64,000 nucleotides of DNA from Escherichia coli. GTDB taxonomy: Bacteria > Pseudomonadota > Gammaproteobacteria > Enterobacterales > Enterobacteriaceae. The stretch lies in NCBI RefSeq assembly GCF_003334305.1, contig NZ_QOWS01000023.1; one strand, given 5' to 3'. The translations under genes and the position numbers were made by a program. A model generated the notes under the pieces. The model had not been told where the DNA came from, made no database searches, and saw only the letters and a list, made by a program, of their open reading frames with translations. Shown in pieces: positions 12,739 to 17,626 of this stretch (the first letter of the stretch is position 1; each line of letters begins with the position of its first letter).

Positions 12739-13626
12739 ATGGATGCAAAACAAACGCGGCAGGGCGTATTACTCGCTCTTGCCGCTTATTTTATTTGGGG
12801 TATTGCGCCAGCGTACTTCAAGTTGATTTACTACGTGCCCGCCGATGAAATCCTGACGCATCGCGTGATCTGGTCGTTTTTCTTTATGGTGGTGCTGATG
12901 AGTATTTGCCGCCAGTGGTCCTATTTAAAAACGCTGATTCAGACGCCACAGAAAATTTTTATGCTGGCAGTCTCTGCCGTGCTGATTGGTGGCAACTGGC
13001 TACTGTTTATCTGGGCGGTGAACAATCACCATATGCTGGAAGCGAGCCTTGGTTACTTTATTAACCCGCTGGTGAACATTGTGCTGGGGATGATTTTCCT
13101 CGGCGAGCGATTCCGCCGGATGCAATGGCTGGCGGTGATTCTGGCGATATGTGGCGTGTTAGTCCAGCTGTGGACTTTTGGTTCGCTACCTATTATCGCG
13201 CTGGGACTGGCATTTAGTTTTGCCTTCTACGGTCTGGTACGCAAGAAGATTGCCGTTGAAGCGCAAACCGGCATGTTAATCGAAACCATGTGGCTGCTGC
13301 CCGTGGCGGCAATTTACCTGTTTGCTATTGCCGACAGCTCAACCAGCCATATGGGGCAAAACCCGATGTCGCTGAATTTACTGCTGATCGCCGCCGGTAT
13401 TGTCACTACCGTACCGCTGTTGTGTTTTACCGCCGCTGCCACGCGCTTGCGTCTCTCAACGTTAGGCTTTTTCCAGTACATTGGCCCGACGCTGATGTTC
13501 CTGCTGGCTGTGACGTTTTATGGTGAAAAACCGGGTGCCGATAAGATGGTGACTTTCGCCTTTATTTGGGTGGCGCTGGCAATTTTTGTTATGGATGCGA
13601 TTTATACGCAGCGTAGAAAAAGTTAA
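12739..13626 (+). CDS. rarD: EamA/DMT-family transporter RarD (295 aa)
   Basis: ORF MDAKQTRQGVLLALAAYFIWGIAPAYFKLIYYVPADEILTHRVIWSFFFMVV... polytopic membrane protein; synteny. Confidence 0.9.
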   Translation: MDAKQTRQGVLLALAAYFIWGIAPAYFKLIYYVPADEILTHRVIWSFFFMVVLMSICRQWSYLKTLIQTPQKIFMLAVSAVLIGGNWLLFIWAVNNHHMLEASLGYFINPLVNIVLGMIFLGERFRRMQWLAVILAICGVLVQLWTFGSLPIIALGLAFSFAFYGLVRKKIAVEAQTGMLIETMWLLPVAAIYLFAIADSSTSHMGQNPMSLNLLLIAAGIVTTVPLLCFTAAATRLRLSTLGFFQYIGPTLMFLLAVTFYGEKPGADKMVTFAFIWVALAIFVMDAIYTQRRKS

Positions 13627-13636
13627 GAATTAACAT

Positions 13637-13662
13637 GGGTAGGCCGTTTAATGAGCCTACCC
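13637..13662. terminator. stem-loop between convergent rarD and the 114-aa ORF
   Basis: gggtaggc ... gcctaccc inverted repeat followed by a T-run on the + strand. Confidence 0.45.
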
Positions 13663-13672
13663 ACTGACTTAT

Positions 13673-14017
13673 TTATCTTTTTTTGAAAAAAATTAAGATA
13701 AGAAAAAGAACAATATTTGTTACAGGAAGTACCCCCAAAACTCCCCAGTACTTACTCCATCCTAGAGACATCGTATATCTACCAAGGATTTGACAAAACC
13801 CAAAACTTAACCCTATACCTATACTTCTTAAATTTAATGTCGTAGTCAGGCTTAAAATAAATAGAACAAGGATGGTAATAGCCCACCACAATAACCATGC
13901 CTTAACAAAATCAGATTTTTTGCTGTAAGGTTCTTTACCCAAGAACAACTGCCAAAAGTTACCATTCCCCATATAGAATCCATTCCCCAAGATATTGTTT
14001 ATAGAATAAAAATACAT
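13673..14017 (-). CDS. hypothetical small hydrophobic protein (114 aa), AT-rich
   Basis: ORF MYFYSINNILGNGFYMGNGNFWQLFLGKEPYSKK... with two hydrophobic stretches; lies in low-GC DNA; no family recognised. Confidence 0.4.
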   Translation of the reverse strand: MYFYSINNILGNGFYMGNGNFWQLFLGKEPYSKKSDFVKAWLLWWAITILVLFILSLTTTLNLRSIGIGLSFGFCQILGRYTMSLGWSKYWGVLGVLPVTNIVLFLILIFFKKR

Positions 14018-14292
14018 TCCAATTATATAATTAAAATATACCCCATCAATAAAAACTTACACACTCTAAATTACTACTGTATAGTTATCAATGCAAAGAC
14101 TGCTATATTGCATATATATGCAAACCTCATAATTCAGGTAATATATATATTCAAAACAATTATATATAAAAAACAATGTAAAAAATATTCAAATCATCCA
14201 TCAGAAATATATTCTACCCATCCAGGCTTGAGCATTTATCACGCTTTCAGTTCATAATCTATACATTAACATCATGGTCAATATTAATAACT

Positions 14293-14571
14293 TTGAATGA
14301 TATCAACCTGGCTTTGAGTTTTATTCTGGTTATTAATAATACCTATGTAAATATCAATATTGGAGCAAAAAGAATAAGAGATACTGGATGTAAGGCAATC
14401 TACTTTGTATTGATTTCATTGGGTTTGACACTTTTTTCTATTATCTCTGCAGCAATTGAAGGGGTGAGATGTGAGTCATTAAGCGTCCAACTCAACGTGG
14501 CATGGATATTATTCACAACAATTATATTATCTGCGATTCCCTCGGCTAAAATGTCGCTGTCAGCACACTAA
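14293..14571 (+). CDS. hypothetical small hydrophobic protein (92 aa), AT-rich
   Basis: ORF MNDINLALSFILVINNTYVNINIGAKRIRDTGCKAIYFVLISLGLTLFSIISAAIEG...; divergent from the 114-aa ORF across a very AT-rich spacer. Confidence 0.35.
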   Translation: MNDINLALSFILVINNTYVNINIGAKRIRDTGCKAIYFVLISLGLTLFSIISAAIEGVRCESLSVQLNVAWILFTTIILSAIPSAKMSLSAH

Positions 14572-14588
14572 CTTACTCACAGCGACAT
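14551..14588. repeat. perfect 10-bp inverted repeat (atgtcgctgt ... acagcgacat) spanning the 92-aa ORF stop codon
   Basis: Read directly; lies immediately before the corA-like fragment. Confidence 0.5.
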
Positions 14589-14595
14589 CGTATAG

Positions 14596-14738
14596 TTACA
14601 GCCAGTTCTTACGCTTAAAGTACAGATACGGTGTCAGGCCCGCAAGGATCATAAAGATAATCGCGCCAGGGTAGCCAAAGCTCCACTTCAGTTCTGGCAT
14701 AAACTCAAAGTTCATGCCATAGCTGGAGGCAATCCGCG
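14596..14738 (-). pseudogene. diverged duplicate of the corA 3' end (last ~43 codons plus stop)
   Basis: Reverse-strand translation ...[43 protein letters not shown] matches the CorA C-terminus encoded at 16307-16449; ~143 nt alignable with several mismatches; upstream part of the 67-aa ORF is unrelated. Confidence 0.75.
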
Positions 14739-14922
14739 TAGGAAAAAGTTTCCTAATCGGTAAATTCAACATTTTGTTATTAACAATGAGCAAGACCAAT
14801 CATTAACGAGGTTCTCTTCAGAGATGTAATGAAAAAATGTGAAATGTACTTCTTTTTTAAATATTTTTTTACCCTAGCATTTGTTCTCGAATTGACATTG
14901 AGCTTAAATATAACCAAGGCAA

Positions 14923-15777
14923 ATGCAAATGAATAACATATTACTTCCGCCAATTAATATTCCCTGTACACTTTTCGAAACTATTAGTTTATTCGATGAT
15001 TTTTCTGCTGATGATATGCAATATGGTGATATGGTAGAACAAGACTTTCTCTCACTCGGCCTAAGCGATATCTCAGCAAAAGTTGATCCTTACAGACTTA
15101 TTAAATACCATTTCCCTGGCCCAGGTTCTATTAATGTTGCTTTTAGTGCCTCAAGTTCCGGAACAAAAATATCACAACGTGAATGCACTGATATTTTATT
15201 TGCAGAAATGAAAGAACTAGCAAAAATGTTTTCCTTTTTTGGACAAAATAAAACACTTATCGAAGATCTGATTGAACATTTTAGATATAGAAATGGCAGC
15301 AATTTTCATAGCCAACAATTAAATTTATCTTTTCATGAAAAAATAAATAAATATGGTTATAATAGTCCAATACGAATAATCAAAGAATGTATCGAAAATG
15401 GCATTAATTCAACTCCCTCGACAGGATACCAACCTCTTATCCTGCAAAGCATTAAAACCAAATTACTTTCATCAAGACTAAATAAATTTAATGACTTCGA
15501 GGACAGTTTTAATGGCTTAGGAATCAGTGTTCATGATATTTCAGCTCAAAAAATATCTCTTTTAAGTTTTCAAAACTACGCTATAGGATGGAGTGCAACA
15601 ATTCATTTTGTAGCACAGGACCACTTCGGTCTTGATGTAACTGATATCAAAAACAAGACTTACAGCAAATATAGATTTTTTCGCATATGGTTCTTTTTAC
15701 AACGGCATAAAGACTTTGCTTTCAAACCTTTTTTCACCAATTTTAACACTATCGAAAGAATCGAAAATTATCTATGA
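14923..15777 (+). CDS. hypothetical protein (284 aa; 282 aa if the second ATG at 14929 is used), no signal peptide
   Basis: Uninterrupted ORF in very AT-rich DNA; aagg Shine-Dalgarno-like motif ~10 nt before the ATG at 14929; stop overlaps the start of the next ORF (ATGA). Confidence 0.65.
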   Translation: MQMNNILLPPINIPCTLFETISLFDDFSADDMQYGDMVEQDFLSLGLSDISAKVDPYRLIKYHFPGPGSINVAFSASSSGTKISQRECTDILFAEMKELAKMFSFFGQNKTLIEDLIEHFRYRNGSNFHSQQLNLSFHEKINKYGYNSPIRIIKECIENGINSTPSTGYQPLILQSIKTKLLSSRLNKFNDFEDSFNGLGISVHDISAQKISLLSFQNYAIGWSATIHFVAQDHFGLDVTDIKNKTYSKYRFFRIWFFLQRHKDFAFKPFFTNFNTIERIENYL

Positions 15778-16253
15778 AAAGCAAACTCCAGAAAATTATA
15801 TTATGTTTATTTCTTCTATGCTGCATCTATAATTTATGGACATTGCGTCCTGTACAGATTTTGTATACATACTCTGATGCTGGCAATTCAGTCTTTCTGG
15901 TCGTTGATCATCTGCCATGGACTGACAGCGATAAAATAAATTGGTATCTGAAGCATCAGAATGAAATTAAAAATCAACATCCCCTACCAGAAGGTAGTTG
16001 GCATACCTGGTATGTCATTGATATCGGTAATGGCTTCACTGACTATAAAAAATATATCGAAGGGCCGTATGAAGATCTCTACTGTTTCCCGACAATTAAG
16101 AGCAATGATAATTGCATCGTGAAAAATTACTTAATGGTTATTAATGAATACCCTTATCGTAACACTCATATTGGTATTAACGATTTTACTGAGTATCAAT
16201 TAACACAAGAAAATAAAATAGAGCGAGTTTTCAATCCGCATGACTTTAAATAA
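15774..16253 (+). CDS. hypothetical protein (159 aa) with N-terminal hydrophobic anchor or signal segment
   Basis: ORF MKSKLQKIILCLFLLCCIYNLWTLRPVQ...; 4-bp ATGA overlap with the upstream ORF suggests translational coupling. Confidence 0.65.
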   Translation: MKSKLQKIILCLFLLCCIYNLWTLRPVQILYTYSDAGNSVFLVVDHLPWTDSDKINWYLKHQNEIKNQHPLPEGSWHTWYVIDIGNGFTDYKKYIEGPYEDLYCFPTIKSNDNCIVKNYLMVINEYPYRNTHIGINDFTEYQLTQENKIERVFNPHDFK

Positions 16254-16271
16254 GACAATTTTTAGAAATAA

Positions 16272-16300
16272 GCCGGATAAAAAAATAGCTTTATCCGGCA
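16272..16300. terminator. bidirectional stem-loop between the 159-aa ORF and corA
   Basis: gccggataaa ... tttatccggc inverted repeat with A/T runs. Confidence 0.5.
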
Positions 16301-16306
16301 CTCATA

Positions 16307-17257
16307 TTACAGCCAGTTCTTGCGCTTAAAGTACAGATACGGTGCCAGGCCCGCGAGGATCATAAAGATAATCGCGCCTGGGTAGCCGAAACTCCACTTC
16401 AGTTCTGGCATAAACTCAAAGTTCATCCCATAGCTGGAAGCAACGAGCGTCGGCGGCAGGAATACCACGGATACCACCGAGAAGATTTTGATGATGCGGT
16501 TCTGCTCGATGTTGATAAAGCCCATCGCCGCCTGCATCAGGAAGTTCACCTTCTGGAACAGGGATTCGTTATGCGGCAGCAGGGATTCGATATCTCGCAG
16601 GATTTCACGCGCCTGCTCCAGTTGCCCACCCGGTAAACGCGCCTTGCGTACCAGGAAGTTGAGCGCACGCTGGGTATCCATCAGACACAGGCGAACTTTC
16701 CAGCCGATATCTTCCAGTTCCGCCAGCGTGGAGAGCGCCTCATCGTACTCATCGCCCTGATGCCCTTCCATAATTACCCGGCTCAACTGCTCCAGATCGC
16801 TGTAGATATTTTCAATTTCATCTGCCAGCTGTTCGATTTTGGTTTCGAACAGATCCAACAGCAGCTCGTAGGCGTTACCGTCCACCATTGACTGGCTACG
16901 GGCGCGCATACGATACAGACGGAATGCAGGCAGTTCACGCTCACGCAGAGTAAACAGACGACCATCACGGATGGTAAATGCCACAGTGGAGTTACCGGCG
17001 TGATCTTCCGCATCTTCAAAGAAGAAGAAGGAGTGAATATGCAGGCCGTCGTCGTCTTCAAAGAAACGTGCCGATGCTTCGATGTCTTCCAGTTCCGGGC
17101 GGGTTGCCAGGCTCTGGCCAAGTTCAGATTGTACGCGCAGTCGCTCGTCGTCGTCCGGTTCGACAAGATCAATCCATACTGCATTTACAAGGGGTTGTGA
17201 CTCTTCGACTTCCAGCCGGGTCAGTCGGTTATTTTCCAGTTGAAATGCGCTCAGCAT
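16307..17257 (-). CDS. corA: Mg2+/Co2+ transport protein CorA (316 aa)
   Basis: ORF track 16307-17272; ATG at 17257 gives [31 protein letters not shown]... and the GMNFE signature near the C-terminus. Confidence 0.95.
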
Positions 17258-17626
17258 GACCGGGACTCCCAATGCTTAAAATATCGGACAGTTCGGTGGG
17301 CACACAGAAACAAATTGGGTTTCAGACCATTAAACAGCCTGACTCAGCGCGACGGGAAAAATTGAGGTCGCTGACAACCGCTAAGGCTATCAGCAAAAAG
17401 GGATAGCCTTAGGAGTTGATCCTGGATGACAGGATAGTGAGCCAGTATCTACTGGGTGTGTCCAAGGCGAATGTCCTCTTAGAGTGATCGTGCGCGCATG
17501 TTACGCCAGCAAAATTTTGCCGTCAACACGCAACAGAACACCACAGAACAATAGTTGAACTTCGCGCTTTTTGGTACTCGTCAAGGTCGCTAACAGGATA
17601 AAAAAATCCAACATCCAGGACCTATA

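Follow-up and report, generated by a model that had tools for sequence, protein, structure and literature searches.

A palindrome beside a displaced corA fragment in Escherichia coli is probably the native corA 3'-end hairpin, stranded by a two-gene insertion

Between rarD and corA of Escherichia coli, the stretch of DNA that we analysed (64,000 nucleotides; hereafter, the window) carries a palindrome, here called T2 (14551-14588, minus strand), next to a displaced piece of corA. What is this palindrome, and does it belong to the genes around it or to the inserted DNA? The initial annotation proposed either a terminator or a recombination or insertion-boundary motif, and held that the palindrome would be probably incidental if it were absent from all other occupied or empty rarD-corA configurations and no transcript ended there. 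We suggest that T2 is probably the stem-loop that natively ended corA in one allele of the spacer, acting there as a weak Rho-independent terminator and/or a stabiliser of the mRNA 3' end, and that in the window it is now a relic.

The gene order is recQ and pldA (both minus), yigI and rarD (plus; rarD at 12739-13626), the AT-rich rarD-side spacer (13627-14595), a corA fragment, a YPO3983-family gene, a DUF943 gene, and intact corA (16307-17272, minus). Over 13400-16500, the window is 100% identical to E. coli strain A7. The fragment (14596-14742, minus) consists of the last 48 codons of corA plus the stop; the RefSeq annotation of the identical A7 has it as a partial CorA pseudogene. The fragment and the 3' end of intact corA (16307-16453, minus) are the left and right copies of a 147-nt direct repeat, 92% identical to each other. 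The insert between them (14743-16306, plus) is AT-rich, with 30-35% GC vs. about 50% in the flanks. It encodes only the YPO3983-family gene (TIGR03034; 14923-15777, plus) and the DUF943 gene (15774-16253, plus), and we found no recombinase or transposase gene in it. A literature search on this island or on a corA terminator gave nothing specific.

We placed the left insert junction at 14742/14743, because the similarity between the fragment and intact corA runs for 147 nt from the stop and then ends. T2 is not part of the 147-nt repeat, and the whole fragment separates it from this junction. On the right side, the insert runs straight into the end of intact corA and has its own hairpin, T3 (16272-16299, minus; GCCGGATAAA...TTTATCCGGC then TTATTTCT), which is terminator-like and now follows intact corA. 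The true boundaries of the island are thus fixed by 14742/14743 and the 147-nt corA repeat.

The first description of T2 was accurate. The arms of the perfect 10-bp inverted repeat are ATGTCGCTGT at 14551-14560 and ACAGCGACAT at 14579-14588, and the 18-nt loop between them, CAGCACACTAACTTACTC, includes the TAA (14569-14571) that stops a 92-aa open reading frame (ORF) at 14293-14571. T2 also sits at the junction as claimed, with the corA-like fragment starting with its stop codon 7 nt beyond the right arm. A repeat search extended the arms to 13 nt (14551-14563 and 14576-14588; 92% complementary, one mismatch), leaving 12 nt between them.

The exact pattern of T2 occurred once in the 64-kb window and in 0 of 100 shuffles, a test that is too lenient. 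A fairer look-elsewhere test counts all inverted repeats with perfect 10-bp arms 3-30 nt apart, and gave 8 in the window vs. 1.2 ± 1.1 in shuffles. About one such repeat per 64 kb is expected by chance, and the class is strongly enriched in the window. Its members stand mostly at gene ends, and those other than T2 mostly resemble gene-end hairpins.

Two further repeats touch this sequence. The 10-mer ATGTCGCTGT, allowing one mismatch at most, is found 15 times in the whole window vs. 4.6 ± 2.3 times in shuffles, an excess that is probably an effect of codon usage (ATG/TCG/CTG-type words). A 33-nt direct repeat overlaps T2 (13750-13782 vs. 14567-14599, 73%), and we judged it to be due to chance: the two copies match exactly over a core of just 11 nt, and in 3.9 kb the expected number of such 11-mer repeats is about 1.8.

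Folding T2 as RNA gave a stable structure, more so on one strand than on the other. A 71-nt segment folded at -27.3 kcal/mol on the minus strand (z = -4.7) and at -19.4 kcal/mol on the plus strand (z = -3.6). For the stem-loop itself, dG was -20.6 kcal/mol on the corA strand vs. -14.1 kcal/mol on the plus strand, a difference due to G-U pairs. The fold on the corA strand consists of 10 bp, a 1-nt internal loop and 4 bp around an 8-nt loop. Behind the stem, a short U-run (14548-14550, minus) is present on this strand alone, reading UUUU when the closing A-U pair at 14551 is counted, and then AGCC; the plus-strand tail, CGUAUAGUUACAGCC, has no U-run. Since both the greater stability and the U-run favour the corA strand, we read T2 as a hairpin of the corA-transcript 3' end.

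As an intrinsic terminator, T2 has some of the usual traits in full and others only marginally. The stem-loop is stable and G+C-rich, with 10 perfect pairs (5 of them G-C, so the stem is 50% GC) and a 4-bp inner helix. At a gene end, 7 nt beyond the stop of intact corA, it is found in Escherichia sp. MOD1-EC7003 as well as in 52 island-free E. coli genomes; the window has only the corA stub before it. The loop of an intrinsic terminator is about 3-8 nt; in T2, the perfect arms are 18 nt apart and the extended ones 12 nt, and the loop comes to 8 nt only in the corA-strand fold that uses G-U pairs. The U-tract has 3-4 U, with 3 U in the first 8 tail bases vs. at least 5 T of 8 in a consensus terminator scan. 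That scan did not report T2, the loop being too long and the T too few, so the terminator reading draws on context and not on the scan. Moreover, a scan with the Rfam 15 covariance models gave no match overlapping 14500-14650, even at E <= 1. A place for T2 among efficient intrinsic terminators is unproven from its sequence, which has the short loop and the U-tract just marginally.

The ORF that ends inside the loop offers another candidate for the gene served by T2. It corresponds to the C-terminal portion of a YigG-like/DUF805-like frame that has diverged, is open from about 14182 (14182-14571, plus) and has no ATG, GTG or TTG before 14293. The frame matches YigG (33% over 45 aa, E = 9e-5), NF008474 (E = 2.6e-4) and DUF805 (E = 0.024), and the 92-aa ORF is absent from the RefSeq annotation. 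The frame is probably a decaying yigG-like gene. On the other strand of the same spacer, a 114-aa ORF (13673-14017, minus) is annotated in A7 as a 99-aa hypothetical protein (WP_000526434.1). It is predicted to be membrane-like, has no NCBIfam match, and stands in place of yigG/yigF in the spacer allele of the window.

T2 could then serve the plus strand, as a terminator or 3' stabiliser of the yigG-like frame, or work in both directions between convergent genes, as the K-12 hairpin T1 does for yigF. The stop codon in the loop, the plus-strand fold, which is still significant, and the positionally equivalent T1, which is the mapped 3' end of yigF, all speak for this. Nevertheless, the plus strand has the weaker stem and the tail lacking a U-run, the full YigG-like frame has no canonical start and is unannotated, and T2 outlives the ORF in genomes where the latter has been deleted (S87-like, see below). 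We therefore consider a plus-strand role quite unlikely.

The distribution of T2 tells whether it belongs to the island. With a 65-nt query centred on T2, exactly one site per genome was found in 1,462 of 5,426 complete E. coli genomes, and none on a plasmid in the same search. All carriers have the hairpin at the same distance from a corA stop codon, 7 nt beyond it. This codon closes the displaced 147-nt corA fragment in about 1,408 genomes, the arrangement seen in the window, and intact corA in 52 genomes that are free of the island. The latter were recognised with a query of T2 plus 300 nt of corA, for which a coverage of at least 80% is possible only without the insert. Together, the 52 island-free and 1,408 insert-bearing genomes are essentially all of the T2 carriers. 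Strains MS 21-1, S87 and NZRM3614 are among those where T2 adjoins intact corA. Thus, T2 goes with the native end of corA and with the allele of the spacer rather than with the island. As it recurs in empty configurations, T2 is not incidental in the sense of the initial annotation.

We also scanned one genome per species for the palindrome arms, which were found in 39 stretches of DNA. One was the cryptic-clade Escherichia sp. MOD1-EC7003, where T2 stands behind intact corA without the insert, and 35 had unrelated loops and came from unrelated taxa. The other three were E. coli DNA binned into gut metagenome-assembled genomes (MAGs). Contigs of public MAGs named 'uncultured Clostridium sp.', 'uncultured Alistipes sp.' and 'Collinsella sp.' share 98-99.8% identity with the E. 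coli locus studied here and are mis-binned E. coli DNA. Taken together, the searches of the window, of the 5,426 E. coli genomes and of one genome per species returned the palindrome, within Escherichia, at this locus only.

These data decide the second half of the original proposal, a motif for recombination or at an insertion boundary. Such a motif could be an att-like site, the end of a transposon or a hairpin targeted by the island on insertion. In favour of this idea, T2 lies at the margin of a variable region, near a gene end that is duplicated. However, each of 1,462 genomes has a single copy of T2 and no plasmid has one, the 147-nt repeat does not include it and no second copy stands at the insert ends, and genes for a recombinase or transposase are lacking from the insert. 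The 52 genomes have T2 but no island; CX21, with another spacer allele, and PEC1013, with no corA fragment, have the island but no T2. The 35 matches outside Escherichia-derived DNA, with their unrelated loops and taxa, also count against the idea. The distribution effectively refutes a boundary motif, and we hold it to be extremely improbable. The terminator half of the proposal stands on indirect grounds, namely the constant 7-nt distance from a corA stop, the strand asymmetry and the U-run.

Comparison of the rarD-corA region among strains gave forms a to f. K-12 has rarD-yigG-yigF-corA (form a), and CX21 has the same spacer with the island, rarD-yigG-yigF-corA fragment-YPO3983-DUF943-corA (form b). 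The window, A7, O157:H7 and about 1,408 genomes in all share another spacer, followed by corA fragment-YPO3983-DUF943-corA (form c). PEC1013 has a third spacer followed by YPO3983-DUF943-corA, and its insert is not accompanied by any corA fragment (form d). In MS 21-1, NZRM3614 and some O157:H7, the spacer of the window adjoins intact corA with no insert (form e). Finally, S87-like genomes, strain MP1 included, have a rarD-corA spacer of 128 bp (form f).

A few O157:H7 strains (NZRM3614, Z1835, Z1836, AC-3 and AC-5) have no insert, and intact corA is then followed by T2. Judging from the sequences, this fits a precise loss of the insert through recombination between the 147-nt repeats, which offer a ready route for losing the two-gene insert exactly.

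About half of the 52 island-free carriers (some 28 genomes similar to S87, including MP1) have the minimal spacer of the S87-like form. In S87 (locus L006, 2946-3073), it keeps little but T2 and the hairpin just past the rarD stop, and the 92-aa ORF is nearly all gone. The rarD hairpin, or rarD terminator, lies in the window at 13635-13664 (plus; GGGTAGGC...GCCTACCC). About 830 bp of spacer were lost in this deletion, which reaches up to about 28 nt from T2. The minimal spacer is a natural deletion series and a possible control for function.

Sequence conservation is in line with retention, to a limited degree. T2 shows 0 changes in 38 nt across all the alleles compared, with variable flanking bases, and the adjoining 92-aa ORF differs at 15-18 of 258 positions. 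With a local divergence of 6-7%, zero changes in 38 nt are weakly significant (roughly P = 0.1 per lineage). As the 38 nt are identical in every allele, covariation or compensatory change in the stem cannot be seen.

T2 might instead have no function, being a chance or decaying repeat carried along with the spacer allele by its tight linkage to corA. This agrees with the chance rate of about one perfect 10-bp inverted repeat per 64 kb, with the lack of a consensus-scan report or Rfam match, and with an invariance that is not statistically compelling at the low divergence within E. coli. We nonetheless find it unlikely: T2 occupies a place, 7 nt past a stop codon, that is taken by a hairpin in all other alleles too, and it survives a deletion of about 830 bp that ends about 28 nt away. 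In addition, G-U pairs and the U-run favour one strand, whose fold has z = -4.7.

The hairpins of the other alleles deserve a closer look. Whatever the configuration, each corA end compared is followed by a hairpin 7-14 nt beyond the stop. In K-12 this is T1, in the window T2 and with the insert T3, three unrelated sequences in the same place after corA. T1 (locus L002, 2608-2632; GGTGGCTTAG-N5-CTAAGCCACC) is the hairpin between the convergent genes yigF and corA of K-12, and in CX21 it is T1, not T2, that adjoins the displaced corA fragment. T3 is present in all insert-bearing forms and is reported by the consensus terminator scan. T1, T2 and T3 show, on a small scale but cleanly, terminator turnover at a gene end that is conserved.

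Published K-12 Term-seq data add a caution. A strong 3' end at T1 (position 4002383) is assigned to the convergent gene yigF (PMC7815308, supplementary file 1), and transcription in the corA direction continues for about 125 nt beyond the stop, to a Rho termination region at 4002485 (PMC7815308, supplementary files 1 and 2). A hairpin after corA need not be corA's terminator, since in K-12 the end at T1 is that of yigF and corA runs on to the Rho region. Moreover, the T-run is on the yigF side in T1 and on the corA side in T2, so the analogy between them holds for position, not for polarity.

At the other end of corA, we observed a perfect 12-bp inverted repeat, CTAAGGCTATCAGC...GGGATAGCCTTAG (17381-17412, minus), in the leader upstream of the gene, close to the small ORF ysgD. 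It includes CTAAGGCTATC, a stretch also found at the end of the sequence given for the K-12 Term-seq 3' end 4001272, which is placed upstream of corA with the note 'riboswitch' (PMC7815308, supplementary file 3). From its sequence, the repeat looks like a leader attenuation site.

Weighing this evidence, we return to T2 as the native corA-end hairpin. Its position, its retention in S87-like genomes, its invariance, the strand asymmetry, the positional equivalence with T1 and T3, the genuine RNA end mapped at the equivalent site T1, and an island boundary that lies elsewhere all argue for this reading. The miss in the consensus scan, the long loop, the 3-4 U and the K-12 T1 end that belongs to yigF argue against it. 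From the evidence on both sides we infer a role in termination or stabilisation, and also the order of events. In island-free genomes with the T2 allele, T2 would end the corA transcript as a fairly weak terminator and/or an exonuclease shield. The AT-rich insert with its YPO3983-family and DUF943 genes would later have joined corA 147 nt before the stop, bringing a replacement corA end and its own terminator, T3 (16272-16299). The old corA end would have been pushed 1.7 kb away together with T2. The same stranding would befall whichever hairpin natively followed corA, which in CX21 is of the K-12 type.

In the window, T2 stands behind a promoterless corA stub and so would be mainly a relic, left at most with stopping stray antisense or read-through transcripts. 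The stranded T2 may still be in use in island-bearing strains, as an insulator against minus-strand read-through toward the 114-aa ORF and rarD, or as the 3' end of a small RNA from the corA stub. Ongoing use would explain an intact T2 beside a corA fragment that has 7 private changes in the window; we nevertheless see it as very doubtful. With the native corA-end reading, a puzzling palindrome would be explained as a hairpin stranded by insertion, which has little import beyond annotation.

Among known systems, T2 recalls the REP/BIME elements in being palindromic and extragenic, in lying between convergent genes and in its potential to stabilise the mRNA upstream. REP/BIME-type palindromes are present in many copies per genome. 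T2 has no sequence resemblance to them and no Rfam match, and, being single-copy in each of its 1,462 carriers, it is not a repeat family.

The island itself can be compared to those that insert into gene 3' ends (tRNA, tmRNA and some protein-gene targets), which supply a replacement end and leave a displaced fragment. Here too, the direct repeat is the 3' end of the target gene (147 nt, 92% identical), and intact corA is rebuilt from an insert-borne end and terminator, with the old end and terminator stranded on the far side. Unlike such islands, this insert has no integrase or other recombinase, its repeat is long and diverged, and in PEC1013 it also occurs without the fragment. The insertion mechanism may have been site-specific or homology-anchored illegitimate recombination.

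The closest parallel at the locus is the yigF/corA hairpin T1 of K-12. Like T1, T2 lies between the stops of a small membrane-protein gene and corA, and both are displaced together with the 147-nt corA fragment when the island is present, T1 in CX21. The sequence of T2 is unrelated, and its U-run is on the corA side instead of the yigF side where T1 has its T-run. Compared with E. coli Rho-independent terminators in general, T2 differs in its long loop, its stem of 50% GC, its 3-4 U and a score below the consensus scan, and its terminator activity is only predicted. It resembles them in lying a few nucleotides past the stop at the end of a transcription unit, with U residues behind a stable, asymmetric fold, and it takes the same position as the terminator hairpins T1 and T3 at this locus. 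T2 is an unannotated instance of the familiar gene-end, terminator-like hairpin.
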